42,863 nt of DNA, taken from the UHGV virus genome UHGV-0096616, one strand, 5' to 3'. Below the pieces are notes generated by a model. That model had not been told where the DNA came from. It ran no database searches and was given only the letters and a program-made list of their open reading frames with translations. Positions 6,750 to 41,101 of the stretch are shown piece after piece. Source of the DNA: a virus. Numbering within the stretch: the stretch's first letter is position 1; the number at the start of each line of letters is the position of its first letter. The translations under genes were made by a program, and so were the position numbers.

Positions 6750-6766
6750 ATTACCTTTCGGGTAAT
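6750..6766. promoter_or_regulatory. palindrome ATTACCTTTCGGGTAAT (site 1 of 13), putative operator
   Basis: TTACC-N5-GGTAA dyad; between the tail spike start and the LexA-box gene. Confidence 0.5.
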
Positions 6767-6802
6767 TTGCAAAACGTGCTGGATAGCAAACAAATTATTT
6801 GA

Positions 6803-6822
6803 TACTGTATAAATATACAGTT
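6803..6822 (+). promoter_or_regulatory. LexA (SOS) box TACTGTATAAATATACAGTT
   Basis: CTGT-N8-ACAG with AT-rich spacer, 17/20 match to consensus TACTGTATATATATACAGTA as I recall it, ~20 bp upstream of the 6842 start. Confidence 0.7.
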
Positions 6823-6841
6823 ATTGCATGGAGAAGATAAG

Positions 6842-7099
6842 ATGCAGCAGTATCACTATCCACTGGAAGACGGATTTACCGAAAGGATTCACACGCCGGG
6901 AGGCGTCAGGTCACTGGTGGAGGGATCGCACTTGATGAAATTACTCCGGGATCTCGATAAGGATGGATTTAATGTCGATGGCCCACTTGCCGAACTGACT
7001 GCACTGATTAACTACGTCACCAGCTCACAGATGTCTATGCAGGATCTGCAAACACATCTCGACTATTGTGCCGAACAATTACGAAAACAAACCAGATAA
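6842..7099 (+). CDS. small SOS-controlled protein (85 aa), putative antirepressor; shares a C-terminal domain with the Bro-N protein
   Basis: ATG with GGAG RBS; LexA box upstream; C-terminal ~50 aa align by eye with the C-terminus of the 7415-8110 product. Confidence 0.45.
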   Translation: MQQYHYPLEDGFTERIHTPGGVRSLVEGSHLMKLLRDLDKDGFNVDGPLAELTALINYVTSSQMSMQDLQTHLDYCAEQLRKQTR

Positions 7100-7129
7100 G
7101 GTTTGCAATTACCAAATGGAGTGCTTATA

Positions 7130-7146
7130 TTTACCTTTGCGGTAAA
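7130..7146. promoter_or_regulatory. palindrome TTTACCTTTGCGGTAAA (site 2) overlapping a sigma70-like promoter (-35 TTGCAA 7103-7108, -10 TATATT 7126-7131)
   Basis: Dyad plus 17-bp-spaced promoter hexamers. Confidence 0.5.
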
Positions 7147-7149
7147 TTT

Positions 7150-7257
7150 ACATCGCACTCCTCTTGTGCCATAGTAATCGGGCACTGGCAAAATCCAGTG
7201 CCGGGATTGGCGTCCCGGATTACTAAAAGGCGCATTCACCGCGCAAGCGGTTTTTTT
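7150..7257 (+). ncRNA. candidate small RNA / attenuating leader: two stem-loops plus intrinsic terminator (ACCGC-gcaa-GCGGT then T7)
   Basis: Hairpins at 7181-7202 and 7201-7218, terminator at 7238-7257, no ORF; sits between the promoter/operator and the Bro-N gene. Confidence 0.35.
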
Positions 7258-7414
7258 ATGCGTATAGCACGGCCACATTCGTATTATGGTGGGCTGTGTG
7301 GGGGCACCGAAAGGTGCGCCGGGTCCTTTTAGCCGGTTACGCCAACCCTGCACAGCTCACCACCAACCGATTGGCGTCGGTAGTGGTGATTAACCAGACT
7401 AAAAGGTAACCACT

Positions 7415-8110
7415 ATGACAGCTACAAAAAGCACGTCCATTTTTTCTTTCGAATCCCAAGCCGATATACGAGTAATCGTCATTAATGGTGAGCCATGGTT
7501 TATCGCTTCAGATGTTTGTCGGGCTATAGGCATAGCAAACCATCGAGATGCTGTTCGAAAACTTGATGATGATGAGAAGGGCGTCGCTTCAACCGACACC
7601 CCTGGCGGTGAGCAAGAATCGATCATCATCTCCGAGTCAGGCCTCTACACACTGATCCTCCGCTGCCGCGACGCAGTGACACCAGGCACTATCCCATACC
7701 GCTTTCGTAAATGGGTTACAGGTGAGGTTCTTCCTCAGATCCGCCGCACCGGAAGTTACATTAAAAACTCGCTCCCGCAGGAAGAGCGCATAAAGATGGT
7801 TGCCGACCAGGTAGCCAACGCCACAGCATCAGCAGTGATGCAGGCGATGAAGATAGAGAACAAAACCTACAGTGCCCCACTGAAGCCCGGCTACCGCAGC
7901 CTGATTCATTCGCCGTCTGGTGTTCTCGGCCTGACGGAGAACTCACTGCTGATGAATCTGCTGAACCAGTTACAGGACGACGGGCACGACGTATCGGGCG
8001 CGGCGGCGGAGCTGACCACCATGTTCTGCTACATCGTCGGTGTGAGCAAATGCCTGCGTGATATCCAGACACACGCGGAGTACATCAACGACAAGGCTGG
8101 GTTCTTCTGA
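7415..8110 (+). CDS. Bro-N domain protein (231 aa), putative antirepressor
   Basis: N-terminal Bro-N-like domain; C-terminal domain homologous to the 6842-7099 product; RBS AAGG. Confidence 0.65.
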   Translation: MTATKSTSIFSFESQADIRVIVINGEPWFIASDVCRAIGIANHRDAVRKLDDDEKGVASTDTPGGEQESIIISESGLYTLILRCRDAVTPGTIPYRFRKWVTGEVLPQIRRTGSYIKNSLPQEERIKMVADQVANATASAVMQAMKIENKTYSAPLKPGYRSLIHSPSGVLGLTENSLLMNLLNQLQDDGHDVSGAAAELTTMFCYIVGVSKCLRDIQTHAEYINDKAGFF

Positions 8111-8180
8111 CGGCGGCGGCACAGGGACGTGCCTTTAAATAATTCTGTACAGATTGCAGACTGGGGGTGAATAGCGTACT

Positions 8181-8197
8181 ATTACCTTAAAGGTAAA
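8181..8197. promoter_or_regulatory. palindrome ATTACCTTAAAGGTAAA (site 3) just downstream of promoter (-35 TTGCAG 8154-8159, -10 TACTAT 8177-8182)
   Basis: Dyad overlapping -10/+1 and adjacent to the AAGGAGG RBS of the 8209 ORF. Confidence 0.5.
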
Positions 8198-8208
8198 GGA
8201 GGCGCGAT

Positions 8209-8376
8209 ATGACAGCGTTGAAAAATCGTACTCAGCACAATGAACAAGCCAAGCAATGCTGGGATGTCATTGGAAAAGTTATGCTTGGCCGCGCAAGCAA
8301 AGAGCGCGACAAGGATATGGTTTACCAGACAGGAACATCTTTCAGCGACTTCAAGGCGGCATTTCGCTCCAAATAG
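8209..8376 (+). CDS. small hypothetical protein (55 aa)
   Basis: Strong RBS AAGGAGG 7 nt upstream of ATG; first gene of a two-gene accessory unit. Confidence 0.4.
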   Translation: MTALKNRTQHNEQAKQCWDVIGKVMLGRASKERDKDMVYQTGTSFSDFKAAFRSK

Positions 8377-8396
8377 AAGCACATTAGGAGTTTGTC

Positions 8397-8837
8397 TTGA
8401 AGTTTAACATTAGAATATCTAATAGTTTTCTAAATGGGGAAAGCAACACCCATTTCGCTGTAGACGGACCTTTCCTTACTGACGATGAAATAAAAATCAT
8501 ACAAAGGTTTTTAGAAGATGTTGCCAATGGAAGGGCGCTTGTTGGAAAAAACAAGCCATCGTGGGTTGATGATAACCATGATAAAATTCCCGGCTCAGAC
8601 AATTATGAGCAAGAGAATTATTGGCATTATCATTGTGGGCCAACATGGTATCCAAACACATTTAAGAATTATACCATTAACTTAAATTTCAACCCTGGCG
8701 GAATGCATTCTAATGAATGCATTCATTATGCAAAAAATGATAATGAAATTGTCGTTGTTGGATTTTCAAGAGAACACATACCTTTCCTTTCATCAGATGG
8801 AAACGACAATCCGCTTTTTTATGATGAAGAAGAATAG
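8397..8837 (+). CDS. AT-rich accessory (moron) protein, 146 aa, acidic C-terminus, unknown function
   Basis: TTG start with AGGAG RBS; visibly much lower GC than neighbours; followed by intrinsic terminator; no family recognised. Confidence 0.5.
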   Translation: MKFNIRISNSFLNGESNTHFAVDGPFLTDDEIKIIQRFLEDVANGRALVGKNKPSWVDDNHDKIPGSDNYEQENYWHYHCGPTWYPNTFKNYTINLNFNPGGMHSNECIHYAKNDNEIVVVGFSREHIPFLSSDGNDNPLFYDEEE

Positions 8838-8859
8838 CCCGCGGCGCGGGCTTTTTTGT
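8838..8859 (+). terminator. intrinsic terminator (GCCCG-cggcg-CGGGC then TTTTTT)
   Basis: GC hairpin plus T-run immediately after the 8837 stop. Confidence 0.65.
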
Positions 8860-8892
8860 GTCTGCGGATTCCCACCCAGGCGGCGGTGACAT

Positions 8893-8921
8893 TCGTTAAA
8901 AACAAGGCCGCGAAAGCGGCC
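8893..8921 (-). terminator. intrinsic terminator on the - strand (GGCCGC-tttc-GCGGCC then TTGTTTTT)
   Basis: Hairpin plus U-tract downstream of the 8931 stop. Confidence 0.5.
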
Positions 8922-8930
8922 TGTGACATG

Positions 8931-9227
8931 TCACGTTCCTTTTCTGAATGATAGCCGTTCGAAAAATGATGACATTCCACCGCAGACAATAGCAAAGATG
9001 ATCCCACCAAAGAAGAGAAGGCCAGCCTGCCACCACTCCCACCGCCATACATCCACAGCACCAACCATACCAACAATCGCTCCAACAAATGGAATATAGC
9101 TCACGATGAAAGCAATGGGGGCTGCAATTATCCAGTGCAATCCCCACCATGATTCAAGCCCAGCCATAATTGCTGCCAACTGAAAAAGACCAACGACGAT
9201 ATAAACAATGAATCCTATCGCTTGCAT
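8931..9227 (-). CDS. small Trp-rich integral membrane protein (98 aa, ~3 TM helices)
   Basis: AGGTGA RBS; hydrophobic helices; lies between the structural operon and the moron island. Confidence 0.5.
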   Translation of the reverse strand: MQAIGFIVYIVVGLFQLAAIMAGLESWWGLHWIIAAPIAFIVSYIPFVGAIVGMVGAVDVWRWEWWQAGLLFFGGIIFAIVCGGMSSFFERLSFRKGT

Positions 9228-9239
9228 GTAGTCACCTAT

Positions 9240-9413: not shown

Positions 9414-9422
9414 AACACTTCC

Positions 9423-19689: not shown

Positions 19690-20297
19690 CAGGACAACCT
19701 CGCAATGGTAAACTCGTCAACCGGTGGCTGTGGTTCCTGTGATTCATTCTGGCTATGCGAGCCAGCACTAAGAATCACGCGATTGTACATATTGAGGGCA
19801 AACGTACCGAGGTCTGCATTCCCAGTCAGCGCCATGTTAATAGCTGCCGCAAGACGCCAGGCCAACGCCTCCATAAAAATGGCATCAAACATGTTCACAT
19901 CTGTAACGCGAGAGACATACTTGAGCCATGCCTGAGGCTGGTCTGTGTAGATCAACTTTCCTGTTCCGTTGGTGTCTGCACCAACTTCGTACTGAACGCG
20001 CATTGCTGCTGTTGGATTGCGTACACCAGGAAGCATAATTTCAGTAATGCGCAGACAATCTGACGGGTACTGGTACGCATATTCCCAGTCAGGCGGTGGA
20101 TTGCTCGTATCTGCAAGCGCCACGCGTTTGGTAGCAAAGTTCCAGTCAAAATCAGAAAGCACAGCATCACGGCAGGCCTCAAAGTGCAGCGAACATTCCC
20201 CCGCTTCCTTGCTGGCTTCCGTCAGGCTGTTAATGCTGCGGCTGTTGCCAATATTGGACAGCGCACGATTACAGATCTCTACTACAGAGGCCATCAC
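19689..20297 (-). CDS. tail tubular protein A / adaptor-gatekeeper (gp11-like), 202 aa
   Basis: Size, position and N-terminal resemblance to T7 gp11 as recalled. Confidence 0.5.
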   Translation of the reverse strand: MMASVVEICNRALSNIGNSRSINSLTEASKEAGECSLHFEACRDAVLSDFDWNFATKRVALADTSNPPPDWEYAYQYPSDCLRITEIMLPGVRNPTAAMRVQYEVGADTNGTGKLIYTDQPQAWLKYVSRVTDVNMFDAIFMEALAWRLAAAINMALTGNADLGTFALNMYNRVILSAGSHSQNESQEPQPPVDEFTIARLS

Positions 20298-20623
20298 TCA
20301 CCTCCGTTACCGTACAGAGTTTCAGCCGCTGATTTTTCTACATCCCCGGAAACAGGAGCGATCGCCATATCAGTGATCTGCAGATCGGCGCTGCGATTAA
20401 CACCATCGTCAGTTTCTCTGGCAGACAGGCCTCGAATAACAGCCTTTGCAGTTATCATCACTTCTGTTCCGACGCCCTGAGGTTGCGCCTTCAGCTTATT
20501 CAATGTGTCGTTATTCAGCGTGATGCACAGCCCCCACGGGTATTCATCGCGAGTTCTGGTTTCTCCGCTCTCATCCTGGTAGCTGTCAGTGCCGGTTTTG
20601 AGGTTTACGAGTTCCATATACAC
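20294..20623 (-). CDS. hypothetical structural protein (109 aa)
   Basis: In capsid-tail module; overlaps the downstream start. Confidence 0.4.
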   Translation of the reverse strand: MYMELVNLKTGTDSYQDESGETRTRDEYPWGLCITLNNDTLNKLKAQPQGVGTEVMITAKAVIRGLSARETDDGVNRSADLQITDMAIAPVSGDVEKSAAETLYGNGGE

Positions 20624-20667
20624 TCCTGCAATAAAGGGGCCGAAGCCCCTTGTCTGATCCGCGAGGC

Positions 20668-21012
20668 TTACACGCCCAGTTCTTTACGCTTATCTGCGAT
20701 CTTCTCGCGGAGCGTTTCGGCTTTGGCGTTATGGTGTGGCTTCTCGTTAAAGAGCAATTCGTACTCTTCACGGAGCTTATCCAGTTCACCATCATCTGAC
20801 ACATCGTTGATGATTTTGGTGCTGGTTGCTGCCATTGACACCTTTCCTGCAACTTTTGCTTTTGCCTGTCTGGCTGCATCGTTAACAGGTTCCAGTGCGC
20901 TACCAGGCTCACCTTCGTATTCGATTTCTGCCCCCTCCGGCCACAGAGTGTTATGGATATGAGAGAGGCGCAGAACGCGGTATCTTGGTTTCTCACCTGA
21001 CATCGATATCAC
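20668..21012 (-). CDS. hypothetical structural protein (114 aa)
   Basis: In capsid-tail module. Confidence 0.4.
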   Translation of the reverse strand: MISMSGEKPRYRVLRLSHIHNTLWPEGAEIEYEGEPGSALEPVNDAARQAKAKVAGKVSMAATSTKIINDVSDDGELDKLREEYELLFNEKPHHNAKAETLREKIADKRKELGV

Positions 21013-21013
21013 C

Positions 21014-25188: not shown

Positions 25189-25395
25189 TTACTGACCAAG
25201 CAGCGTTTTACCGCCGGTCTTAGCGGTTGATGTGTCGCCCTGAGAACCGGTAAGCAGCGTAGAACTACGACCAGCAGCAGCGCGACGGCGACGAGTTTCT
25301 TCGTCGCGGGCATCAACAACGGCGGCATCCTGCTCCTGTGGTGCTGCCTGAACTTCTGGTGTTGCAGGCACTGATGGTGAGCTACCCATGCACAT
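25189..25395 (-). CDS. small acidic hypothetical protein (68 aa)
   Basis: GGAG RBS; upstream of portal; an alternative overlapping frame exists. Confidence 0.3.
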   Translation of the reverse strand: MCMGSSPSVPATPEVQAAPQEQDAAVVDARDEETRRRRAAAGRSSTLLTGSQGDTSTAKTGGKTLLGQ

Positions 25396-25484
25396 ATCAA
25401 TGACTCCGTACGCAATTAAATTATTACCAATTTAACCACATATGATTTATTTATCGTAGATAGTTGACATTTAACGCACAAATT

Positions 25485-25501
25485 ATTACCTTTCAGGTAA
25501 C
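25485..25501. promoter_or_regulatory. palindrome ATTACCTTTCAGGTAAC (site 4) with -35 TTGACA at 25464-25469
   Basis: Dyad 17 bp downstream of a consensus -35; faces the noncoding leader and tRNA. Confidence 0.5.
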
Positions 25502-26086: not shown

Positions 26087-26101
26087 GCTTGATGACCGCA
26101 A

Positions 26102-26118
26102 ATTACCTTAAAGGTATA
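26102..26118. promoter_or_regulatory. palindrome ATTACCTTAAAGGTATA (site 5) inside a promoter (-35 ATGACC 26092-26097, -10 TATAAT 26115-26120)
   Basis: Dyad between -35 and -10 with 17-bp spacing. Confidence 0.5.
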
Positions 26119-26145
26119 ATCATGAAAAACTTCAAGGTAATTAGC

Positions 26146-26940
26146 ATGTTTGAATCGTTTAAAGAGCTGTTTTTATCTACTGCCAATACTGCCGTGAATA
26201 GAGCCAAAAACCCTGTGCTTGGTGCTTTTGTTATGTCCTGGTGCGCCTTCAACTGGAAATCAATTCTTTATCTATTTTTTAGCAAATCAAACATAATAGA
26301 TAAAATTTCATATATCTCAGATAACAGCACATGGAAAACTGTTATGTTTTATCCATGCTTATCTGTAATTGCTATCTGCTGCCTATTACCATGGGTAAAC
26401 AATATCATTAACGTATGGCAAGCAAAGCCTCTTGATAATAATGACTCAATCGAAAATCACCTGAAGGCAAGAAAAATCCAGCGTGAAACAAGACTGCAGA
26501 GGTTATTGGCTAAAAAAGATGTTACATACGACAAAGTTAAGACTGGCGCGGAAAAAGACATCCAAGAGATGAAAGAAGAGATTATTCGATCAAAGAATAG
26601 TATGGGGGAATTGACTGCCGAGTTGAAAGCTAAAGATGACGAATTGAGATCCGCCAGTGCTCAGTTAGCAGCTCTAAATCATTCATTAAAAGAGATATCG
26701 GAAACTCTTGGAAGAATGAATGAGGCATATAATACCCTCCAAAATGATTTCGACGAATACAAACTCAAATACCCTGAAAAATCTCAAATAAAAAGCCTTG
26801 CACTTGGCAACGGCCAAACAATTAGCAACTTTTTGGAGCAACACAACTTATCCGGATTAAAATCTGGTAAGCCAAACGTTTTTAATAACTTTGGTGTTCT
26901 ATCTGGATTATCAGGTTTCGAGGATAAAAATAAAGACTAA
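26146..26940 (+). CDS. AT-rich accessory (moron) membrane protein with long C-terminal coiled coil (~264 aa); candidate superinfection-exclusion/abortive-infection factor
   Basis: Two predicted TM helices then coiled coil; visibly low GC; opposite strand to the late operon; own promoter and terminator; start set at ATG 26146 (AAGG RBS) because the track start at 26122 abuts the -10. Confidence 0.5.
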   Translation: MFESFKELFLSTANTAVNRAKNPVLGAFVMSWCAFNWKSILYLFFSKSNIIDKISYISDNSTWKTVMFYPCLSVIAICCLLPWVNNIINVWQAKPLDNNDSIENHLKARKIQRETRLQRLLAKKDVTYDKVKTGAEKDIQEMKEEIIRSKNSMGELTAELKAKDDELRSASAQLAALNHSLKEISETLGRMNEAYNTLQNDFDEYKLKYPEKSQIKSLALGNGQTISNFLEQHNLSGLKSGKPNVFNNFGVLSGLSGFEDKNKD

Positions 26941-28412: not shown

Positions 28413-29005
28413 TGATTACCATCCTGACGTTCTTTGAGTCGCTTCCTGGCTGCTGCTATGCGATCAGCAATTGTCACATTCACATTAACATCCAGACGTT
28501 CTTTGAACGCGTTGACATCAACATGCTTACCAATCAGTTCTAGGTTCTTCACCTTGTCAGGCCATTTAATTTTTTTGAGGATTGTCTCTATCGAATCCTC
28601 GTTCATGTTCATGATGGTCGATGACAGATCAAAGCCACTAAGCGTAGTGCGCCAGATTTTCGGCCACTCACGGATTGGTTTAAGGCTCCCATCGTCGTTG
28701 AGGATATCGATCACGTCCATCTGGTCGATCTCCACCAAGCGCATGAGAACGTAATCAGCACTGACGCGCATTCGTTTGTTGCGCTCCTCCATCAACTCGG
28801 CAATCCGTTTTTGAATGCGTTCATCGCGCATCATGACACTGGCTTTAACTGCCGCTGTATTTGGGGAGAATCCTGCGTTAATCGCAGCCTGAGTCTGGTT
28901 TTCAGGCGTTTTGATGTATGACTGGCAATAAGCCTCCTGCATTGCTGTGAGCGGCTTAAATTGCGTTGATTTGCGTTTATAGGTTTTAGGTTCAGCAGGC
29001 ATCAT
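28409..29005 (-). CDS. terS: terminase small subunit (about 198 aa)
   Basis: Overlaps the terL start; start moved to MMPAEP because the longer track N-terminus is translated from operator-like repeats. Confidence 0.6.
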   Translation of the reverse strand: MMPAEPKTYKRKSTQFKPLTAMQEAYCQSYIKTPENQTQAAINAGFSPNTAAVKASVMMRDERIQKRIAELMEERNKRMRVSADYVLMRLVEIDQMDVIDILNDDGSLKPIREWPKIWRTTLSGFDLSSTIMNMNEDSIETILKKIKWPDKVKNLELIGKHVDVNAFKERLDVNVNVTIADRIAAARKRLKERQDGNQ

Positions 29006-29021
29006 AACCACCGTGGTAATA

Positions 29022-29038
29022 GTTACCGTTGTGGTAAT
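29022..29038. promoter_or_regulatory. palindrome GTTACCGTTGTGGTAAT (site 6) at the start of the late operon
   Basis: TTACC-N5-GGTAA dyad 17 bp upstream of the terS start, with extra GGTAAT half-sites nearby. Confidence 0.45.
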
Positions 29039-29123: not shown

Positions 29124-29471
29124 TCACACTATTAATTTCGTTTCATGCCAGCCTTTAGTCACCCAGCATTGCGAGTCACCATTACACGGGCATGAATTAA
29201 CTGGAACTCTCTCGCCGCACTTACCGCAACGTTTTCTGCTGATCGATTTTATACGCCCGCGCACACGTGCATCATCCTGGCGGATCAGCAGCGCGATGTA
29301 CTCGGCCATTTCATAGGGATCGCGACCAGGGCGCCGGGCGGCGCAGTTCCGCGCTAGCATTTCCTGCTCCTGCTTATCCAGCACCAGTTCAATTTTGCGC
29401 TCACCGGCGGCGGACTGCCGAGCGCGCTGCGCGGCTTTGCGTTCTGCGGGGGATTTAGCCACGAATCGCAC
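29124..29471 (-). CDS. hypothetical basic protein with C-terminal Cys-rich zinc-ribbon-like motif (115 aa); possible late-gene regulator
   Basis: Motif CGKCG...CPC; last gene before the late-operon control region. Confidence 0.4.
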   Translation of the reverse strand: MRFVAKSPAERKAAQRARQSAAGERKIELVLDKQEQEMLARNCAARRPGRDPYEMAEYIALLIRQDDARVRGRIKSISRKRCGKCGERVPVNSCPCNGDSQCWVTKGWHETKLIV

Positions 29472-32488: not shown

Positions 32489-32833
32489 TCAGAACTCTTC
32501 GATGATCCAGCCACCACCTGCTTTCTTTGGTTTAACAGTTACCCCGATGATTCGGAACGGATACTGATCTGCGGCGACTTTGGTTTTCACCCTGGCGTCG
32601 TCGGTCCAGAAACCTTTCACTTCGTGCAGTTCCATCTCGCCGGTGGCGAGCATCACAGCAAAATCGGGCGTATAGAACGTGTTGTCAGCTAACCGCAGCT
32701 TGATACCCTCAAATCGATACCAGACGATTTCTCCTGCACGTTTACGCAGCTCAAGGTGCTGGCAATACGCAGATTCTGTTTTGTTCATCTGACCTGTTTT
32801 GAGTCGACCAAGAGCCTGTATCTGTTTTCTCAT
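32489..32833 (-). CDS. small PD-(D/E)XK-like nuclease (DUF1064-like, 114 aa)
   Basis: YTPDF...ELHEVKG arrangement (D...E-x-K); operator half-site doubles as RBS. Confidence 0.45.
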   Translation of the reverse strand: MRKQIQALGRLKTGQMNKTESAYCQHLELRKRAGEIVWYRFEGIKLRLADNTFYTPDFAVMLATGEMELHEVKGFWTDDARVKTKVAADQYPFRIIGVTVKPKKAGGGWIIEEF

Positions 32834-32835: not shown

Positions 32836-32852
32836 TTTACCTCTGAGGTAAT
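32836..32852. promoter_or_regulatory. palindrome TTTACCTCTGAGGTAAT (site 7)
   Basis: Dyad immediately upstream of the 32833 start. Confidence 0.5.
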
Positions 32853-32897
32853 TAAAAACCACATAAGACACGAAATCAATAGATTTTAGAATATTTT

Positions 32898-32914
32898 ATT
32901 ACCTAACAGGTAAT
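32898..32914. promoter_or_regulatory. palindrome ATTACCTAACAGGTAAT (site 8)
   Basis: Perfect dyad 62 bp from site 7 in the same intergenic region. Confidence 0.5.
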
Positions 32915-32950: not shown

Positions 32951-33751
32951 TTACTTGATAAATCCTGCCGCCTTTCCTCGCCTGTATTCCTCCATCAGCC
33001 ACTGCGCCGGTGTTATTCCACCAAGGGTGGCGGCGTTAGGCATGCACCCGAAACTTCGCCCTGGTGGATGGTAAACGTCTCTCCCTGTGTCCGGAGGTGT
33101 ACTCATGGGTTCTGGCTTTGCCTGTATGCTGATCACCGGATCGGGTATCTGCTGTCCGGAAGCCACCTTTTTCGCCCAATCATCGAGCAGCCTGCGCGCG
33201 TGTTTCTCAACCTCAATCTCGCTAAGCTGGCGCTGATACATTGCACGGCGGGTATCACATACGACCCAGTACATAACCGGATGTCGCCACGGGAATCTTT
33301 CGGGACCACCAGGATATAAACTTTTTTCCTTGCTGTACCGGTTAAACTCCGCCATCACATCGTCAATGGTGACGCCAAGAACCATCTTGCTGTCTTTACA
33401 CCACTTGATGAATTGCCCAGGCGACGGCCAGAACGGAGATTCACTGGCGCGGGCGTGGCGCATACCAGCAGAAACCTGTTCACGGGTTCGGATCCCCCCT
33501 TCGGCAAACGCAGCAATCCACTGCTGTTTTGCAGCGACTTCCTGCTCTGGCGTCTTCAGGTTGGTTACCACTGCCGCCGGAAACAGTTGTTTCAGCTGTT
33601 TGAAAAGGGCATCAACAAGCCTCTCTGCTGACATGTTCACCACATTGTCATTGTTGACGTACTGATGCTCATAACCTGACATGCGAGAAAGGGCTTCTCC
33701 GTCACGGTTTTGTATCGCGGTAAAAACGTTGTTCACAAGAAATCCTCCCAT
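32951..33751 (-). CDS. replication protein P-like (helicase loader), 266 aa
   Basis: Strong resemblance to lambda P as recalled: AGMRHARASESPFWPSPGQFIKWC vs lambda AGMRVARRQNRPFLPSPGQFVAWC, plus flanking conserved blocks. Confidence 0.7.
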   Translation of the reverse strand: MGGFLVNNVFTAIQNRDGEALSRMSGYEHQYVNNDNVVNMSAERLVDALFKQLKQLFPAAVVTNLKTPEQEVAAKQQWIAAFAEGGIRTREQVSAGMRHARASESPFWPSPGQFIKWCKDSKMVLGVTIDDVMAEFNRYSKEKSLYPGGPERFPWRHPVMYWVVCDTRRAMYQRQLSEIEVEKHARRLLDDWAKKVASGQQIPDPVISIQAKPEPMSTPPDTGRDVYHPPGRSFGCMPNAATLGGITPAQWLMEEYRRGKAAGFIK

Positions 33752-34548
33752 GCTTCAGGGCTGTTCCAGTGCGGAACGTTGTTATCAGGTAATGTTGATT
33801 GCTTCTGTCTGCTAATCTGCAGCCGCCTTGCCAGCTTCTGCTCCCACTGTGCCTGATGGTATGCCTTACCCTCAGCCATCCAGTAAATTCTGAACTCTGC
33901 AAGTTCCTGTGCCGTTGGCAGACTGTCCAGGTAGATCCCCTGCAATGAGCTTTTCCGAAGAAAGTCATCTGATGGCTGCCATTGTTCATGCATGACAAAT
34001 TTGCCTAATTGCCCTGGCCCACCAGGAGGAACAAAGTTATTCATCACGGCGTTGTTTGCGCCGGGGTCATGAGGCACAGAACCTCGGGTTTTTGTCCTGC
34101 TCTCCCTCTCTTGGTTAAATGACTGGTTATATGACTGGTTCTGGATCCCGTTTTTGGGATCATTCAACATCCCGTTTTTGGGATCATTCAACATCCCGTT
34201 TTTGGGTATATTCCCGTTTTCGGTAACATTACCGTTTTCGGGTTCATTGCCCCCCTCCCGGTTGCCTTTAATGTTCCCGTTTTTGGTTATATTAAGAGAG
34301 AAAACCCGCACTCTTTTTGTCGCTCCCTTTCTCTCTCCGGTATCTGAAATAAGCCCCATTTTCATGAGCGATATAAGCCCGGCCTGCACGGTTTTTTTAT
34401 TCAGGCAAGTGTCTTTAACGAGGCGTTCTATGCTGGGGTAGCAGAGGTTATATTCATCGGCTCTGTCAGCCATCGAGAGCAGTATGAGCTTTAATGATGA
34501 GCTACCTGGATCTGTCTCCCAGGCCCAATCTGTTGCATGTCTGCTCAT
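33733..34548 (-). CDS. replication initiator O-like protein (271 aa): N-terminal winged-helix, Asn/Gly-rich repeat linker, DnaT-like C-terminal domain
   Basis: Immediately upstream of the P-like gene; contains DNA iterons; domain architecture. Confidence 0.6.
   Translation of the reverse strand: MSRHATDWAWETDPGSSSLKLILLSMADRADEYNLCYPSIERLVKDTCLNKKTVQAGLISLMKMGLISDTGERKGATKRVRVFSLNITKNGNIKGNREGGNEPENGNVTENGNIPKNGMLNDPKNGMLNDPKNGIQNQSYNQSFNQERESRTKTRGSVPHDPGANNAVMNNFVPPGGPGQLGKFVMHEQWQPSDDFLRKSSLQGIYLDSLPTAQELAEFRIYWMAEGKAYHQAQWEQKLARRLQISRQKQSTLPDNNVPHWNSPEAWEDFL
34147..34300. repeat. iteron array, putative origin of replication (about 6 copies of CCCGTTTT(T/C)GG.., two identical 24-bp units)
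   Basis: Tandem repeats with internal dyad (ATCCCgtttttGGGAT) inside the O-like gene, as in lambda ori. Confidence 0.5.
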
Positions 34549-34764: not shown

Positions 34765-34843
34765 GGTAAGCCCTGTTATTAGTATTGGGATTACGGTCAT
34801 TTTGTGCTGACACAAAAAAAAGATCAACCATATTTGGTTTTTT

Positions 34844-34860
34844 ATTACCTTTGAGGTACG
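34844..34860. promoter_or_regulatory. palindrome ATTACCTTTGAGGTACG (site 9, one mismatch)
   Basis: Dyad between the cro-like gene and the next early gene. Confidence 0.4.
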
Positions 34861-34914: not shown

Positions 34915-35145
34915 TCATGAGTAGAAGAAGTATGCCAGTTCTGCTTTTGAGCGCAGCCATTGTCTTGTTTTACAGGCTTTAAAAAGCCCATTCATCAATA
35001 CTTTACCTGGCATTTTGCGCTTACCTGTTAAGTGAGTCTGGATATAGTGACTCGTCGTTCCGGCTTCCTGTGCGAAGGCTTCACGCTCATCCGGAGTAAG
35101 TGCAAGCCAGTGCTTTTTGAAATCGAAATGTCCGTTATCGCTCAT
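34915..35145 (-). CDS. Cro-like small HTH regulator (76 aa)
   Basis: Small basic HTH protein, first gene of the leftward early operon, divergent from the repressor. Confidence 0.5.
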   Translation of the reverse strand: MSDNGHFDFKKHWLALTPDEREAFAQEAGTTSHYIQTHLTGKRKMPGKVLMNGLFKACKTRQWLRSKAELAYFFYS

Positions 35146-35228
35146 AGCTATTGCCTGATATTTATTTCAGATAATAAATATTCACCCATAAGGTAACAAA
35201 AATCAAGGATAGTTACCCATGAGGTGCA

Positions 35229-35245
35229 TTTACCTGTTGGGTAAT
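35229..35245. promoter_or_regulatory. palindrome TTTACCTGTTGGGTAAT (site 10) in the repressor/cro divergent region, with extra GGTAAC/GTTACC half-sites at 35192-35218
   Basis: Dyad in the 154-bp intergenic switch region. Confidence 0.5.
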
Positions 35246-35299: not shown

Positions 35300-35884
35300 A
35301 TGAAAAGTATCCAGGACGTCCGCAGGCAAAATCTCAACGACTTGATCGACCGTGAATTCAATGGTGTTCAGACGCGGATGGCTGAAAAACTTGGAACTCA
35401 GGCAAATCTGGTAAACCGCTGGGCTCTTGGTAAGAAGGTTATCGGCGATCAGGTTGCGCGAAAAATTGAAGCTGCCGCCAATAAACCCCGTAACTGGCTT
35501 GATATCGATCGCTCGCTTTCTCAGGAAGGTTTTCAGCCTGTCGGCCCAAGCGACATTGGCCAGCTGGCGGCTCACAACCTGGAACGCTGGATGAGCGAAA
35601 GCCGCGACCTTTCAACACAGGGAAAACTTCACCGCGCATCCGGCGTAGCCCAGGTGACAATCAGCCGCCTGTTAAACAATGAGGTCAGCGTTTCCATTTC
35701 CACCCTGGAGAATGTTGCATCCGCATTCGGGCGTCACGGCTATGAATTACTGATTCACCCGCACGACCCTGCGACCATCAACTATGATCGCTCGCGCTAC
35801 GCATTGTTACCCGAAACCGAGAAAGCAAAGATCGAAAGTTACATTGAATTTGTCATCAACCAGAACGAAAAAAACAAACAATAA
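35300..35884 (+). CDS. CI-like prophage repressor with two HTH domains and no S24 peptidase domain (194 aa)
   Basis: Two XRE-type HTH segments; divergent from cro-like operon; followed by a terminator. Confidence 0.6.
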   Translation: MKSIQDVRRQNLNDLIDREFNGVQTRMAEKLGTQANLVNRWALGKKVIGDQVARKIEAAANKPRNWLDIDRSLSQEGFQPVGPSDIGQLAAHNLERWMSESRDLSTQGKLHRASGVAQVTISRLLNNEVSVSISTLENVASAFGRHGYELLIHPHDPATINYDRSRYALLPETEKAKIESYIEFVINQNEKNKQ

Positions 35885-35904: not shown

Positions 35905-35930
35905 AAGCCGCCTTATGGCGGCTTTTTTAT
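35905..35930 (+). terminator. intrinsic terminator (AAGCCGCC-ttat-GGCGGCTT then TTTTTAT)
   Basis: Hairpin plus T-run after the repressor stop. Confidence 0.7.
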
Positions 35931-35940: not shown

Positions 35941-35957
35941 ATTACCTAACGGGTAAT
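35941..35957. promoter_or_regulatory. palindrome ATTACCTAACGGGTAAT (site 11)
   Basis: Perfect dyad upstream of -35 TTGACA (35976-35981). Confidence 0.5.
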
Positions 35958-36002
35958 TTTTTTAACTCATATCTATTGACATCAAACCATATACGCATAA
36001 TT

Positions 36003-36019
36003 ATTACCTCAACGGTAAC
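36003..36019. promoter_or_regulatory. palindrome ATTACCTCAACGGTAAC (site 12) overlapping -10/+1 of the rightward promoter
   Basis: -35 TTGACA, 17-bp spacer, -10 AATTAT, dyad immediately following. Confidence 0.5.
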
Positions 36020-36037
36020 AGACCGAGGTAACAAGTT

Positions 36038-36190: not shown

Positions 36191-36192
36191 TA

Positions 36193-38248: not shown

Positions 38249-38297
38249 CCACCACCGCGGCGCCACGCGCGCCGCACTGCAACCAAGAGAGGTATTT

Positions 38298-38546
38298 ATG
38301 AAAGGTGCATTAGGTAAGAAGGAACTCCTGGCGGTGGTTCCACTGTCATGGAGCACTATCGACCGTATGGAGCGCGCAGGGGAATTTCCTAAACGCTGGT
38401 ATATCACCGATAAACGCTGCGCATGGAACCGTGATGAAGTTGAGCGTTGGCTTGATGAACGTCAGGCAGCAAGCCCGGCAGAGTTCCAGGGTAAAAAACC
38501 TCCTGTTCAGCAACGTGTATATCGTCCCGTGAGCAACGCGGCATGA
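38298..38546 (+). CDS. xis: AlpA-family excisionase / small HTH regulator (82 aa)
   Basis: Pattern LLAVVPLSWSTIDRMERAGEFPKRWYI...WNRDEVERWL typical of AlpA/Xis HTH_17 proteins. Confidence 0.6.
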   Translation: MKGALGKKELLAVVPLSWSTIDRMERAGEFPKRWYITDKRCAWNRDEVERWLDERQAASPAEFQGKKPPVQQRVYRPVSNAA

Positions 38547-38655
38547 GTGTGCTGCTAAGGCACTGGAGCAAATGGTCAGGATGGTACTTATTCCTGGCCT
38601 CTGTTTCAGCATGGCTTTATCTGCTGGCATTAATTTTCAGAGAGGGTTGGATTAA

Positions 38656-38955
38656 GTGAGAAAGTTAAGCCGACTTGAAAAATATCACATGAATAAGGTT
38701 TCAATGCGCAGTCCGTCAAAGATTGTCGCCGTTACTCCTGCGGCGATAGAGATCGAAAAACGCGCGATTGAAAGAGAGAAAAAAGGGCAGTTCCGCATTG
38801 CCGCCCACCTTTGGCTTCAGTGTATGGATGTTGCTTCTGGTGATGTTGAACGTGCAAGGATCGCGATTCGCAGGGACCAATGTATCACAAAAGGTAACGG
38901 ACTTCGCCGTGGCGACTATAGCGGCATAGGATGTTGTGGGGTGGTTTATGACTAA
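38656..38955 (+). CDS. small hypothetical protein, possibly PerC-like regulator
   Basis: Weak resemblance only; start uncertain. Confidence 0.3.
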   Translation: MRKLSRLEKYHMNKVSMRSPSKIVAVTPAAIEIEKRAIEREKKGQFRIAAHLWLQCMDVASGDVERARIAIRRDQCITKGNGLRRGDYSGIGCCGVVYD

Positions 38956-39598
38956 GAAATACACACTAATCTATGCAGATCCACCCTGGGCATACCGGGA
39001 CAAAGCCACAGATGGTAATCGCGGTGCCGGTTTTAAATATCCGGTTATGAGTGTGCTGGATATCTGCCGCCTTCCTGTGTGGGATTTGGCCGGTGAAAAC
39101 TGTCTGTTGGCCATGTGGTGGGTGCCAACACAACCACTCGAAGCACTAAAAGTTGTTGAAGCCTGGGGATTCCGTCTGATGACCATGAAGGGCTTCACGT
39201 GGATAAAATGTGGTAGTCGACAACCAGATAAACTGGTTATGGGTATGGGACACATGACTCGCGCCAATAGTGAAGATTGCCTGTTTGCGGTAAAGGGAAA
39301 ACTACCTCCGCGCATTAATGCAGGTATCGTTCAGTCATTTACCGCACCGCGGCTTGAGCATTCAAGAAAACCAGATGTCGTTCGTGAAAAACTTGTGCAA
39401 TTATTAGGCGATGTTTCTCGCATTGAACTGTTCGCCCGCCAGACGTCTCATGGCTTCGATGTTTGGGGTAATCAGTGCGAAGACCCGGCAGTGCAACTAC
39501 ACCCTGGATACGCGTTGGATATTGGCGGATTAACAAATGCATTCAGCAATGCTCCGCTGTCACCAACAGACAACCAGGGGCGGGAGCGTGCTGCATGA
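38948..39598 (+). CDS. N6-adenine DNA methyltransferase, MT-A70 family (orphan, no cognate nuclease seen)
   Basis: Catalytic DPPW motif (YADPPWAY) near the N-terminus; start set at MTKKYTL. Confidence 0.75.
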   Translation: MTKKYTLIYADPPWAYRDKATDGNRGAGFKYPVMSVLDICRLPVWDLAGENCLLAMWWVPTQPLEALKVVEAWGFRLMTMKGFTWIKCGSRQPDKLVMGMGHMTRANSEDCLFAVKGKLPPRINAGIVQSFTAPRLEHSRKPDVVREKLVQLLGDVSRIELFARQTSHGFDVWGNQCEDPAVQLHPGYALDIGGLTNAFSNAPLSPTDNQGRERAA

Positions 39599-39789
39599 AC
39601 AGGGCATCACCAGCAGATTTAAGAAAATGCCTTGAAACTGCAAACATGCTTGCACACAGCGGGATCAGGTTTGTTCCAATTCCCGCTGTCACTGATGCTG
39701 AATTTGCAACACTGTCAGCAATATTCGAAAACAAAATTGAATCACTGGCAGCAGAAGCAGAGATGGAAGAAAATCAGCAGAACTATTAA
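39595..39789 (+). CDS. small hypothetical protein (64 aa, acidic C-terminus)
   Basis: ATGA-coupled to the methyltransferase stop. Confidence 0.35.
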   Translation: MNRASPADLRKCLETANMLAHSGIRFVPIPAVTDAEFATLSAIFENKIESLAAEAEMEENQQNY

Positions 39790-39792
39790 ACG

Positions 39793-41043
39793 TTATTCCC
39801 CCGCCATCCACTTCTCAAACTTCGACGGGGAGAACGGAATCAGATCCGTATGCTCCCCGTTAATCCAGGAATCAATCATATCGGACCACTGCTGCAACAT
39901 GTAGGCGCGCTGTCTGGCGTATTCCGCTTTGTTATATACGGCGCGCACACCTTTCTGCTCATGTGCCAGAGCCTTTTCAATCCAGTCTGAAGGATAACCA
40001 GCCTCATGCAACAACGTACTGGCTGTACGGCGCATATCGTGTACGGTGAAGTCCTGAATATGCTCACCATCTTCATTTATTATTTTCACCGTTCTGTCGA
40101 TCAGAGAGTTCAGCGCGGCATTAGATAATGGCTTCCTGAAATTGTAACGACCAGGAACCAGATATTCACTTCCACCAGCGCACATCTGCAACCCGACCAA
40201 TATATCCTGAGCCTGTTTAGGCAGGTAAATAACATGCGCCCGGCTTCCCTTCATGCGGTCTGAAGGAATTGTCCATGTCCATTTTTTAAAATCTATTTCA
40301 TCCCACGTTGCATTGGTGAATTCGCCTTTACGAACCATAGTGATAAGCACCAGCTTTAAAGCCATTTTCATAGTGCCCATAGCACCAATGGCATCCAGCG
40401 TGCGGAAGAACAGACCAATTTCTTCTGGTGTCAGTGTTCGCTCTCGTGGTTTAAATATGGCGATAGACGAAGGTTTAATGTCAGCAGCAGGATTAAACAA
40501 ACCATGACCACGGTCATTGGCGTGACGGTATACGCTGCTGATGATCTCCCTGGCCTGTACTGCTGTTGCCCGACCACCGCGTTCGACAATCCGGTCACAC
40601 AAATCACGAACCATCGATGTGGTAATTTCAGCCATCATTTTGTTGCCAAGAACCGGAAGTATGTCACGGTCGATCACCGCCTGCTTCATTGCGCGGGTAC
40701 TTTCAGCCAGGATGACGTGTTTCATATAACTGTCGGTATGTACCGCAAACGTCTCGGCACCACGAATCTTTTTGATACCGTCACGTTTAGCCGCAGCCGG
40801 CGACTGGCCTGCTTTAAGCAGCTTCTTTGCAGCAATCAGTTCTTCTCGCGCTTCTGCCAGGCTGATACCGTCACGCCCATACTGCCCGATTACCAGTGTT
40901 TCGCGGCGACCGTTGATACGGTAGTCATAGCGAAACGAGACCGTACCTGACGTAAGCACAGCTACATACAGCCCGTCACGATCGGAAACTTTGTACAGTT
41001 TGTCCTGTGGCTTGAGGTTTTTTAATTTTGTATCGGTAAGCAC
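39793..41043 (-). CDS. int: tyrosine integrase, P4-like family (416 aa)
   Basis: N-terminal Arm-type domain, C-terminal catalytic domain with conserved R...H..R...Y region; adjacent to attR. Confidence 0.9.
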   Translation of the reverse strand: MLTDTKLKNLKPQDKLYKVSDRDGLYVAVLTSGTVSFRYDYRINGRRETLVIGQYGRDGISLAEAREELIAAKKLLKAGQSPAAAKRDGIKKIRGAETFAVHTDSYMKHVILAESTRAMKQAVIDRDILPVLGNKMMAEITTSMVRDLCDRIVERGGRATAVQAREIISSVYRHANDRGHGLFNPAADIKPSSIAIFKPRERTLTPEEIGLFFRTLDAIGAMGTMKMALKLVLITMVRKGEFTNATWDEIDFKKWTWTIPSDRMKGSRAHVIYLPKQAQDILVGLQMCAGGSEYLVPGRYNFRKPLSNAALNSLIDRTVKIINEDGEHIQDFTVHDMRRTASTLLHEAGYPSDWIEKALAHEQKGVRAVYNKAEYARQRAYMLQQWSDMIDSWINGEHTDLIPFSPSKFEKWMAGE

Positions 41044-41084
41044 AATTCACCCGTATAGAAACCATTTTCATGACGGTATGAGAG

Positions 41085-41101
41085 TATACCTTTAAGGTAA
41101 T
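41085..41101. promoter_or_regulatory. palindrome TATACCTTTAAGGTAAT (site 13, one mismatch) upstream of int
   Basis: Dyad 42 bp upstream of the integrase start. Confidence 0.4.

Follow-up and report, generated by a model that had tools for sequence, protein, structure and literature searches.

TTACC-N5-GGTAA dyads dispersed along a phiV10-like Escherichia coli prophage as probable operators of its own Rep repressor

A palindrome that recurs throughout a prophage raises the question of which protein reads it and to what effect. The window considered here, that is, the whole analysed stretch of 42,863 nucleotides (UHGV-0096616), is a phiV10-like Uetakevirus (phiV10/epsilon15-type) prophage of E. 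coli inserted at guaA. A sequence-only reading had listed 13 copies of TTACC-N5-GGTAA, ten perfect and three with one mismatch. The ten exact copies stand, against 0.04 expected from dinucleotide shuffles of the window, and none of 100 shuffles reaches ten; the total, however, rises to 16 credible operator-like sites (ten exact, five with one mismatch, and one with two). When up to one mismatch is tolerated, 16 copies are found in the window where 0.64 are expected. Five of the six one-mismatch copies (26103, 29005, 34845, 35182, and 41086) are intergenic; the sixth, at 3673, lies within a lysis gene, probably occurs by chance, and was left out of the credible set. The two-mismatch copy at 35213 was counted as credible, being located between two good sites in the rep–cro spacer; every remaining two-mismatch copy falls in coding sequence, as chance predicts. 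The dyads had been described as intergenic and restricted to the prophage, and both statements hold: 16/16 credible sites reside in the non-coding 8.2% of the ~39.35-kb prophage, and scanning the host flanks of the window returned no copies. Dyad 29023 lies inside an annotated long terS ORF, yet upstream of a likelier ATG at 29002. De novo enumeration of all 5-nt dyads with gaps of 0–11 ranks TTACC with a gap of 5 first in the window, the 17-bp consensus being A-TTACC-(T/A)NNNN-GGTAA-T. The repeat set is confirmed as real and non-chance. Its members, named below by their first position, are:

6751–6765, exact; divergent tailspike/ant intergenic region, adjoining a TTGCAA hexamer on the ant side; epsilon15 syntenic counterpart 19895–19911, annotated as repressor-binding
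7131–7145, exact; first base is the last −10 base of promoter 7103–7131 (TTGCAA-17-TATATT), which heads the isrK-C4-bro/ant operon; identical counterpart in phiV10 at 20497
8182–8196, exact; first base is the last base of the −10-like TACTAT (8177–8182), upstream of small genes 8209–8376 and 8397–8837
25486–25500, exact; between the late structural operon (minus strand; first gene ends at 25395) and tRNA-Arg (plus strand), with TTGACA (25464–25469, plus strand) 16 nt upstream; epsilon15 syntenic counterpart 2931–2947, annotated as repressor-binding
26103–26117, one mismatch (GGTAT); in the spacer and over the −10 of promoter 26092–26120 (ATGACC-17-TATAAT), upstream of accessory gene 26146–26940
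29005–29019, one mismatch; tandem partner of 29023, 18 bp apart, 2 nt upstream of the probable terS ATG at 29002 (minus strand)
29023–29037, exact; on the minus strand, first base is the last base of TACTAT (29042–29037), downstream of terminator 29074–29057; epsilon15 counterpart 12–27, annotated as repressor-binding
32837–32851, exact; downstream half of a 62-bp pair with 32899; on the minus strand, begins at the last −10 base (TTTAAT), with −35 TTGATT at 32879–32874
32899–32913, exact; upstream half of the pair with 32837, filling the spacer of a second promoter-like site on the minus strand (TCAACA-16-TAAAAT, 32920–32893); epsilon15 counterpart 35906–35922, annotated as repressor-binding
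34845–34859, one mismatch; minus strand, just past the cro terminator 34893–34874 and before the replication genes; phiV10 syntenic counterpart 33112
35182–35196, OR-type, one mismatch; over the −35 and spacer of the leftward cro promoter (TTGTTA-17-TATTAT, 35199–35171)
35213–35227, OR-type, two mismatches (TTACCcatgaGGTGC); 31 bp from 35182 and 17 bp from 35230
35230–35244, OR-type, exact; nearest OR site to rep
35942–35956, exact; upstream half of a PL-type 62-bp pair, after the rep terminator 35905–35924; epsilon15 counterpart 32616–32632, annotated as repressor-binding
36004–36018, exact; first base is the last −10 base of the PL-type promoter 35976–36004 (TTGACA-17-AATTAT), which heads the recombination/early-left operon; epsilon15 counterpart 32554–32570, annotated as repressor-binding
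41086–41100, one mismatch; upstream of int; its GGTAT mismatch, kept in every relative, makes a −10-like TATACT (41088–41083, minus strand)

An overlap of the dyads with the −10/+1 region had been proposed. This is the case at five of them, namely 7131 (isrK/C4/bro-ant operon), 8182 (8209 operon), 36004 (PL-type promoter), 32837 (DUF1064 operon), and 29023 (terS), which begin on the last −10 base and cover approximately −7 to +9; elsewhere, however, other arrangements are found, and dyad geometry falls into several classes. Four dyads fill spacers or overlap −10 or −35 elements: 26103 at the accessory gene 26146–26940, 41086 at int, 32899 at the second promoter there, and 35182 at the cro promoter. 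Tandem dyads 17–18 bp apart occur at OR and terS, and the OR triplet spacing of 17 + 30/31 is common to epsilon15 and SPC32H. Dyads 6751 and 25486 are located ~50–70 bp upstream of late-type leaders that do not look sigma-70-like, and no convincing sigma-70 promoter overlap is seen at 6751, 25486, or 34845. Two dyads, 35942 and 32899, are auxiliary sites 62 bp upstream of another. One such pair had been recognised before (as 32836/32898) and is confirmed as 32837/32899, but the second, 35942/36004, had been missed. Each pair, spaced by about six helical turns, brackets a sigma-70 promoter (DUF1064 and PL-type, respectively), and the spacing is exactly 62 bp in 150 of 152 close site pairs from 80 IMG/VR loci. 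Two loci in each genome keep the module aTTACC-N5-GGTAAtttttt...CTATTGAca-N17-(-10)TTACC, whereas their flanks diverge. These geometry classes and the 62-bp rule were worked out in the present analysis.

An alternative reading is that of an RNA hairpin in 5′ leaders that would affect mRNA stability or mask Shine-Dalgarno sequences. AGGUAA resembles a Shine-Dalgarno sequence and UUACCU its complement, the 3′ arm of dyad 32837 is the Shine-Dalgarno of the DUF1064 gene (GAGGTAAatcATG) in all relatives, 9 of 50 start codons have GGTAA no more than 22 nt away, and folds of −3.5 to −4.5 kcal/mol are predicted. The stems are, however, short and weak, and at the five promoters where the first base of the dyad is also the last of the −10, the transcript would start inside the loop and so lack the 5′ arm. 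Moreover, the arm sequence does not vary across genera, compensatory changes being absent, whereas the loop is free to vary; several dyads are situated upstream of a −35 or past terminators. A role as RNA is accordingly judged very improbable. Extra half-sites next to ribosome-binding sites, previously noted as well, can be explained otherwise: the C4 antisense-RNA target includes the one at 7403, and a separate conserved block accounts for those in the late and tailspike leaders.

The dyad is shared by the relatives of the prophage. It ranks first de novo not only in the window but also in phiV10, epsilon15, SPC32H, and three prophages with divergent Reps (52–58% identical), and it is enriched in a Klebsiella relative. 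In the SPC32H genome it occupies syntenic positions with spacings of 17, 30, 62, and 76 bp. The epsilon15 GenBank record (NC_004775 / AY150271), which reportedly goes back to Kropinski et al. in 2007, annotates the same dyads as 'protein_bind: repressor, lysogeny' in seven places (terS, late operon, ant/tailspike, PL with three sites, and the replication boundary), all 7/7 with an identical TTACC-N5-GGTAA core; the system is therefore of a known kind. This record lacks the OR triplet, an int site, a lysis-cassette site, and the second pair members, and the phiV10 record annotates none of these dyads. In BPP-1, which has a related capsid and a different cI, no dyad sites were found. Upstream of its lysis cassette, the window has no site, the only copy there having three mismatches (3839–3853).

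Of the readings considered, the least probable is that a host protein, either a nucleoid protein or a transcription factor, binds the dyad, or that the repeat serves packaging or replication. Two dyads lie right at terS, a common place for pac sites, and IHF sites are annotated beside two epsilon15 dyads. Against this, a 50-kb E. coli chromosome control contains no exact dyad and a single one-mismatch copy, and the host flanks contain none; we know of no E. coli factor with the consensus TTACC-N5-GGTAA. Candidate replication iterons form a different repeat (ATCCC-N6-GGGAT), and the distribution of the dyads tracks promoters instead of one packaging or origin locus.

The dyads very probably constitute the operator set of the prophage's own Rep, as judged from sequence comparison. 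The regulators and RNAs concerned are:

6803–6822, LexA box (TACTGTATAAATATACAGTT) directly upstream of ant
6842–7099, plus strand, ant, small antirepressor of 85 aa, 88% identical to SPC32H Ant
7182–7257, plus strand, isrK-like sRNA ending in a terminator
7282–7367, plus strand, C4 antisense RNA
7415–8110, plus strand, Bro-N/Ant-C gene, C-terminal residues 150–223 42% identical to the small Ant
34915–35145, minus strand, cro-like gene (76 aa) divergent from rep; phrog_35 transcriptional repressor, E 5.6e-13
35300–35884, plus strand, rep, 194-aa repressor of the SPC32H/epsilon15 Rep family, 100% identical to phiV10 gp40

The 35300–35884 product, already suspected by the sequence-only reading, is the best candidate by virtue of its match to 5d50_A, the SPC32H repressor (E 4e-42, residues 1–190), the epsilon15 annotation, and the half-sites of Pseudomonas phage PseuP_224. 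It is 43% identical to the epsilon15 and SPC32H Reps, the SPC32H match extending over the full length at 42–43%. PseuP_224, a siphovirus whose annotated genes look unrelated to those of the window, shares the Rep N-terminal domain only (39% identity, E 1e-12), and its genome carries TTACC-N4-GGTAA in three exact copies and one with a mismatch (0.23 expected), all flanking the cI gene; at the sequence level, the half-site thus co-travels with this domain into an unrelated phage. In the N-terminal domain of Rep, N36, R40, and W41 are invariant in 17 diverse homologues, L37 being nearly so.

Other characters that had been assigned to this regulator need correction. It was read as a double-HTH protein; Pfam HTH_3 (residues 106–147), however, coincides with the dimerisation domain of the literature and is probably not the DNA reader, the DNA-binding domain being the N-terminal one. 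In this family, the DNA-binding domain is followed by a dimerisation domain and a C-terminal tetramerisation/Ant-binding domain (PMC9986798). Nor does a simple dimer agree with the literature, where the family Rep is described as tetrameric and as binding palindromes in trans, with DNA-binding pairs drawn from different dimers of the tetramer (PMC9638917). Finally, Rep is not CI-like in its induction: a domain search revealed no S24 peptidase domain, and an SPC32H-type small Ant behind a LexA box is present instead.

A more serious competitor, though still improbable, holds that Rep acts only at rep–cro and PL and leaves the dispersed dyads mainly to some other conserved regulator of the phage, namely the Cro-like protein, the phrog_536 regulator (29124–29471), or the AlpA/Xis-like protein (38298–38546). 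All three co-occur with the motif, their genes being conserved in all motif-carrying relatives. Operators are usually common to Cro-type proteins and their repressors, and the Cro-like product probably also binds the OR sites; for dyads 6751 and 25486, upstream of late-type leaders, an activator or architectural role is conceivable. Within the genus, no repressor–operator covariation singles out Rep, since every sampled Rep variant keeps the same motif. However, the dispersed dyads do not differ in sequence from those at OR and PL, most of them overlap sigma-70-type core elements as expected of a repressor, and the epsilon15 annotators gave the sites to the repressor. The PseuP_224 half-site, too, travels with a Rep-type N-terminal domain between phages whose annotated genes otherwise look unrelated.

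If Rep is the reader, its N-terminal helix-turn-helix domain would recognise the TTACC half-site, and a tetramer with two DNA-binding pairs could hold two operators. At five promoters, the position of the operator over approximately −7 to +9 would exclude RNA polymerase; at the PL-type and DUF1064 promoters, one tetramer on a 62-bp pair could close a small loop around the promoter. In the lysogen, Rep would hold off lytic, replication, packaging, late, int, and accessory units, and silencing of the morons is plausible since dyads overlap their promoters. When the same Rep sequence was over-expressed in phage ZX5, lysin and holin mRNA fell by >99.9% (PMC9782041). Induction would proceed via the LexA-controlled small Ant, which would strip Rep from DNA. 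The Bro-N/Ant-C protein is a candidate second antirepressor, its gene lying behind a Rep-type operator and a C4 RNA: the isrK-like sRNA and C4 RNA (7182–7367) lie between the 7131 operator/promoter and this gene. Derepression of this operon, whose placement under an operator dyad was added by the present analysis, would reinforce the switch.

The closest known system is the Rep–Ant lysis/lysogeny switch of the Salmonella Uetakevirus SPC32H, reportedly described by Kim and Ryu in 2013 and Kim et al. in 2016; the associated structures are PDB 5D50, its Rep, and 5D4Z. Besides the Rep match and the 88% identical Ant, the LexA box before ant and the syntenic dyads are common to both. In contrast to SPC32H, the window carries the phiV10 allele of Rep, diverged in its middle and C-terminal parts, together with accessory genes of its own that have putative operators and a second Ant paralogue that is fused to Bro-N and preceded by isrK/C4 RNAs.

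Single repressors with many scattered operators are known from phage P1, whose C1 repressor has 22 operators dispersed genome-wide (PMC8546580). Those operators are asymmetric 17-mers (ATTGCTCTAATAAATTT), whereas the sites in the window are symmetric dyads, often paired. The P1 antirepressor operon (immI, c4-icd-ant), with a C4 antisense RNA ahead and itself under a repressor operator, parallels the arrangement of 7131 operator, C4 RNA, and antirepressor; C1 appears unrelated to Rep in sequence. In mycobacteriophage L5/Cluster A, a single immunity repressor likewise has sites throughout the genome, roughly 20–30 'stoperators' that help to silence the prophage (PMC6550527). Stoperators are asymmetric 13-mers oriented with transcription, mostly off promoters, that block elongation and co-vary with the repressor, whereas the window dyads are palindromic, mostly promoter-overlapping, and invariant across Reps 42–100% identical. 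Lambda CI OR/OL shares the divergent rep/cro with three operators, the succession of rep, terminator, and PL-type promoter with operators, the 17-bp operator dyads, and a site pairing that implies cooperativity or looping. In contrast to lambda, Rep lacks the S24 autocleavage domain and is induced by an antirepressor, operators are present at roughly 13 further places, and 62-bp short pairs take the place of the 2.3-kb OL–OR loop.

Ten exact copies of the palindrome TTACC-N5-GGTAA are found in the window, where 0.04 would be expected, and the number rises to 16 (0.64 expected) when up to one mismatch is allowed. In an unbiased enumeration covering every 5-nt dyad of the window at gap lengths 0-11, TTACC with a gap of 5 ranked first; the extended consensus reads A-TTACC-(T/A)NNNN-GGTAA-T. 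Non-coding DNA, which by an approximate CDS map makes up 8.2% of the prophage, harbors all ten exact copies and all but one of the six one-mismatch copies. At 35213, in the rep-cro spacer, a copy with two mismatches is likewise non-coding, and all other two-mismatch copies lie inside genes, matching chance expectation. The host flanks contain no dyad, and 50 kb of E. coli chromosome used as a control contain no exact and a single one-mismatch copy. A sequence-only reading had proposed a recurrent intergenic dyad, to be doubted if enterobacterial DNA proved similarly dense in the motif; enrichment, non-coding placement and clean controls confirm the observation. The repeated dyads listed there are genuine, but 16 sites are credible rather than 13.

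BLAST comparisons with phage records and E. coli genomes identify the prophage as a phiV10/epsilon15-type podovirus of the genus Uetakevirus; it extends from ~1850 to 41200, its insertion point being the 3′ end of guaA. Its gene order is that of phiV10: lysis cassette, tailspike, ant, accessory genes, late structural operon, tRNA-Arg, terL/terS, nin-like genes, replication, cro-like gene, rep, recombination/early-left operon and int. The 16 sites, called by their start coordinates, fall into five geometry classes, and nine or ten of them overlap -35, spacer, -10 or +1 elements.

Geometry classes of the TTACC-N5-GGTAA sites (start coordinate, strand where assigned, promoter elements or position)
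Class 1, 7131: TTGCAA-17-TATATT
Class 1, 8182: TTGCAG-17-TACTAT
Class 1, 36004: TTGACA-17-AATTAT
Class 1, 32837 (-): TTGATT-17-TTTAAT
Class 1, 29023 (-): TACTAT
Class 2, 26103: ATGACC-17-TATAAT
Class 2, 41086: ahead of int
Class 2, 32899: TCAACA-16-TAAAAT
Class 2, 35182: covers -35 and spacer of the cro promoter TTGTTA-17-TATTAT
Class 3, 35942 and 32899: auxiliary, exactly 62 bp upstream
Class 4, 29005/29023: tandem (17-18 bp) at terS
Class 4, 35182, 35213, 35230: OR triplet, spacings 31 and 17 bp
Class 5, 6751: between ant and the tailspike gene, adjoining TTGCAA on the ant side
Class 5, 25486: ahead of the late operon
Class 5, 34845: past the cro terminator

At the five class 1 sites (-10/+1), the dyad begins at the final base of the -10 hexamer, while class 2 operators lie within the spacer or cover the -10 or -35; at 26103 and 41086 the conserved 'mismatch' GGTAT itself generates the -10. 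Judging from these positions, both classes would act by classical steric repression. The module aTTACC-N5-GGTAAtttttt ... CTATTGAca-N17-(-10)TTACC occurs at two loci per genome in relatives despite diverged flanks, and in 80 IMG/VR loci 150 of 152 close site pairs are exactly 62 bp apart. This spacing had been noticed at 32836/32898, and that pair holds, but a second one, 35942/36004, went unmentioned. Since 62 bp corresponds to about six helical turns, both dyads would face the same side of the helix and one tetramer could bracket the promoter. The tandem arrangement of class 4 is kept in the Uetakevirus relatives epsilon15 and SPC32H, and the positions of classes 3 and 4 would suit a regulator that contacts DNA through two binding units. 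The OR sites are probably also used by the Cro-like protein; beside 35230, no convincing rep (PRM-type) promoter was detected by eye or by promoter scan. Class 5 sites, which have no convincing sigma-70 promoter, might, from their location, act as roadblocks, take part in bridging or compete with upstream factors, and it is possible that another conserved phage regulator binds them. In the epsilon15 record, annotated IHF sites adjoin two dyads of this type.

The dyads could also be read as RNA elements, either leader hairpins or terminators. This is unlikely, given that transcription from the five class 1 promoters would begin within the loop, that variation is confined to the loops, with no compensatory changes in the arms, that the stems are weak (-3.5 to -4.5 kcal/mol), and that no Rfam match falls on the dyads.

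The protein best placed to bind these DNA operators is the product of 35300-35884 (+), Rep, which has the same sequence as phiV10 gp40 (100% identity) and shares 43% identity with the repressors of epsilon15 and SPC32H. A phmmer search against the PDB matched residues 1-190 to the SPC32H repressor structure 5d50_A (E 4e-42), and the homology covers the N-terminal DNA-binding, the middle and the C-terminal tetramerisation/Ant-binding domains. In SPC32H Rep, these are described as DNA-binding, dimerisation and tetramerisation/Ant-binding modules, respectively (PMC9986798), and the protein as a tetramer on palindromic sites with its DNA-binding pairs drawn from different dimers (PMC9638917). Binding of a tetrameric Rep to palindromes, and its release by the antirepressor Ant, are thus carried over from what is reported for SPC32H. 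Over-expression of an identical Rep sequence in phage ZX5 lowered lysin and holin mRNA by >99.9% (PMC9782041). Homology to 5d50_A supports the earlier choice of this gene as the regulator but not its CI-like label, as Pfam finds HTH_3, HTH_26, LacI, YdaS-type and HTH_31 matches and no Peptidase_S24 domain.

Antirepressor gene and its upstream LexA box
6842-7099 (+): small antirepressor Ant, 88% identical to SPC32H Ant, syntenic
6803-6822: LexA box TACTGTATAAATATACAGTT, 20 nt upstream of the ant ATG, one mismatch to the 20-bp consensus (0.02 expected)

As in an SPC32H/epsilon15-type system, the ant locus lies between the late operon and the tailspike gene. Ant is this similar to its SPC32H counterpart although the Reps are only ~43% identical, also in the C-terminal region to which Ant reportedly binds. 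By every sequence-level criterion tested, the system belongs to the SPC32H/epsilon15 Rep-Ant family.

The public record already holds much of this arrangement. In the GenBank entry of epsilon15, seven 'protein_bind: repressor; lysogeny' features are dispersed across the genome (12-27, 2931-47, 19895-911, 32479-94, 32554-70, 32616-32 and 35906-22); all seven coincide with TTACC-N5-GGTAA dyads, and syntenic counterparts are present in the window. A scan of related phages, which the sequence-only reading had suggested, identified the same dyad, in syntenic placement, as the most enriched palindrome in phiV10, SPC32H, a Klebsiella Uetakevirus and three prophages. The dyad is kept in the three prophages (one from Serratia), whose Reps are 52-58% identical, and in a Klebsiella phage whose Rep is 45% identical. 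From the epsilon15 annotation and the dyad positions in the SPC32H rep-cro region, we infer that the operator used experimentally for SPC32H is this dyad. Motif, repressor assignment and genome-wide scatter are therefore on record for epsilon15, and the finding is a rediscovery. New here are the 16-site map of a phiV10-type phage, the geometry classes and the 62-bp rule, as well as the cross-backbone link between half-site and domain and the operator over an isrK/C4/bro-ant operon.

Within the genus, the presumptive recognition residues N36, R40 and W41 are invariant and L37 is nearly so in Rep homologues, and a related-locus search with a diverse Rep alignment yielded 80 loci with identical Rep in all. 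With motif and recognition residues both invariant, covariation cannot discriminate between candidate binders, and a Pseudomonas homologue of the N-terminal domain was therefore taken as a test. The cI protein of the unrelated siphovirus PseuP_224 (245 aa; cI region 19922-20836) has only its N-terminal ~65 residues in common with Rep (39% identity, E 1e-12). The GC-rich, 31.7-kb PseuP_224 genome contains three exact and one one-mismatch copy of TTACC-N4-GGTAA against 0.23 expected, and all four flank cI: the half-site is that of the Rep phages and the spacing is one base shorter, which would make this phage a natural test case for the reading of half-site spacing. Bordetella phage BPP-1, whose capsid is closer to that of the window than epsilon15's is and whose cI is different, has no copy of the dyad in its genome. 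Together, these results indicate that it is the Rep-type domain, rather than the virion module, that the half-site tracks. A host factor or a chance origin of the dyads was ruled out by the E. coli chromosome and BPP-1 controls.

Half-sites had also been reported next to ribosome-binding sites. They do recur, with GGTAA at most 22 nt from the start codon in nine of 50 genes, but they have mixed reasons rather than one cause. Two of the nine are operators themselves, and at the DUF1064 gene the 3′ arm of the operator doubles as Shine-Dalgarno sequence in all relatives. The half-sites of the late and tailspike leaders sit in a separate conserved block, CATATGTGGTT-N3-TnGGTAATA(a/g)AT, whose CATATGTGGTT part is a second recurrent motif (5 matches at up to one mismatch, 0.84 expected).

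Copies of the second motif
6692-6721 (-): full block, tailspike leader
25415-25444 (-): full block, late-operon leader
32857-32867 (-): weaker copy
34829-34839 (+): weaker copy

In all relatives, the block, possibly a late-promoter or activator element, is the best-conserved part of the tailspike and late leaders.

A further half-site, at 7403, belongs to CUAAAAGGUAACC and lies in an operon whose promoter, under the 7131 operator, reads an isrK-like sRNA and then a C4 RNA before the Bro-N gene.

Elements of the isrK/C4/bro-ant operon
7182-7257 (+): isrK-like Hfq-binding sRNA, Rfam 77.9 bits, own terminator at its end
7282-7367 (+): C4 antisense RNA, Rfam 79.2 bits
7415-8110 (+): Bro-N/Ant-C gene

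Read by eye, CUAAAAGGUAACC is complementary to loop sequences of the C4 RNA, and the C4 loop CCUUUUAG to CUAAAAGG, which forms part of the ribosome-binding site of gene 7415; the CUAAAAGG octamer also recurs within isrK (~7223-7230). Residues 150-223 of the 231-aa Bro-N protein share 42% identity with the small Ant (E 2e-15); this C-terminal domain and Ant match the same PHROG, phrog_450. Hence there are two Ant-domain proteins, one LexA-controlled and one under a Rep-type operator and a C4 RNA. It is suggested that the LexA-controlled Ant strips Rep from its sites and thereby frees the second antirepressor, which would create positive feedback. The immI region of phage P1 is a c4-icd-ant operon, itself under a C1 operator, and the isrK/C4/bro-ant layout resembles it.

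On a larger scale, the P1 C1 regulon, with 22 dispersed operators of the asymmetric 17-bp consensus ATTGCTCTAATAAATTT (PMC8546580), shares with the window many scattered operators including one over a C4-ant operon; in contrast to the P1 operators, the window's dyads are symmetric, so that the system works like the P1 regulon without being a member of it. L5 stoperators are asymmetric, transcription-oriented, located mostly away from promoters and act as elongation blocks (PMC6550527); they likewise form a dispersed regulon, whereas the sites studied here are palindromic and 9-10/16 lie on promoter elements. Unlike autocleavable repressors of the lambda CI/LexA kind, Rep has no S24 domain. No new kind of system is revealed.

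The operator code may have become frozen throughout the genus, given that the dyad is unchanged with Reps only 42-58% identical, in phages of E. coli, Salmonella, Klebsiella and Serratia. If so, Uetakeviruses would all cross-repress at the DNA level as a single immunity group, with specificity shifted to the Rep-Ant interface. At the 62-bp pairs, whose strict spacing fits a repressor reported to be tetrameric, a single Rep tetramer could close a six-turn micro-loop round a sigma-70 promoter; singleton sites would bridge longer distances, such that silencing would act on the prophage as one looped domain instead of on each promoter separately, and repression of the isrK/C4/bro-ant operon by Rep would give induction its positive feedback. 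The joint proposal of a genus-frozen code, micro-loops, looped-domain silencing and bro-ant feedback is put forward tentatively and is, in our estimate, rather unlikely to hold in combination. The operator map and the 62-bp rule make the published 'trans' tetramer model testable on natural promoters, and predict silence in the lysogen, followed by expression at induction, for int, terS, the tRNA and two accessory-gene units. This prediction is relevant to calling the accessory genes lysogenic-conversion genes, and to phiV10-type reporters for E. coli O157. A raw-sequence reading thus recovered a complete and correct repressor regulon.

Several gene-level observations accompany the map. PGAP and the phiV10 record start terS at TTG 29083 (-), a choice that would leave two operators and a strong terminator (29074-29057) within the coding sequence; ATG 29002 (-), giving 197 aa, near epsilon15's annotated 198 aa, is the likelier start. 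The accessory gene behind the 26103 operator probably starts at ATG 26146 (+), with the Shine-Dalgarno sequence AAGGTAA, rather than at 26122, because residue 9 is the first in the PHROG alignment, and transcription from the -10 TATAAT (26115-26120) would begin past 26122. Among proteins of known function, its 264-aa product resembles just DndD and LmuB, in weak matches of coiled-coil type; searches with PADLOC and Pfam for defence or other known functions of the operator-controlled accessory genes gave weak coiled-coil-type matches and nothing else. Upstream of the lysis cassette, where phiV10 (24692), epsilon15 (24704) and SPC32H (24782) have a good dyad, the window has just a three-mismatch remnant, CCTCCtaaatGGTAA, at 3839-3853; it also lacks the O-antigen modification genes found at this position in the three relatives. 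Finally, the DnaT-like replication gene (33733-34548) contains six direct repeats of ~18-24 bp at 34145-34297, built on the dyad ATCCC-N6-GGGAT and including two identical 24-nt copies; they look like origin iterons inside an initiator gene, as in lambda O.
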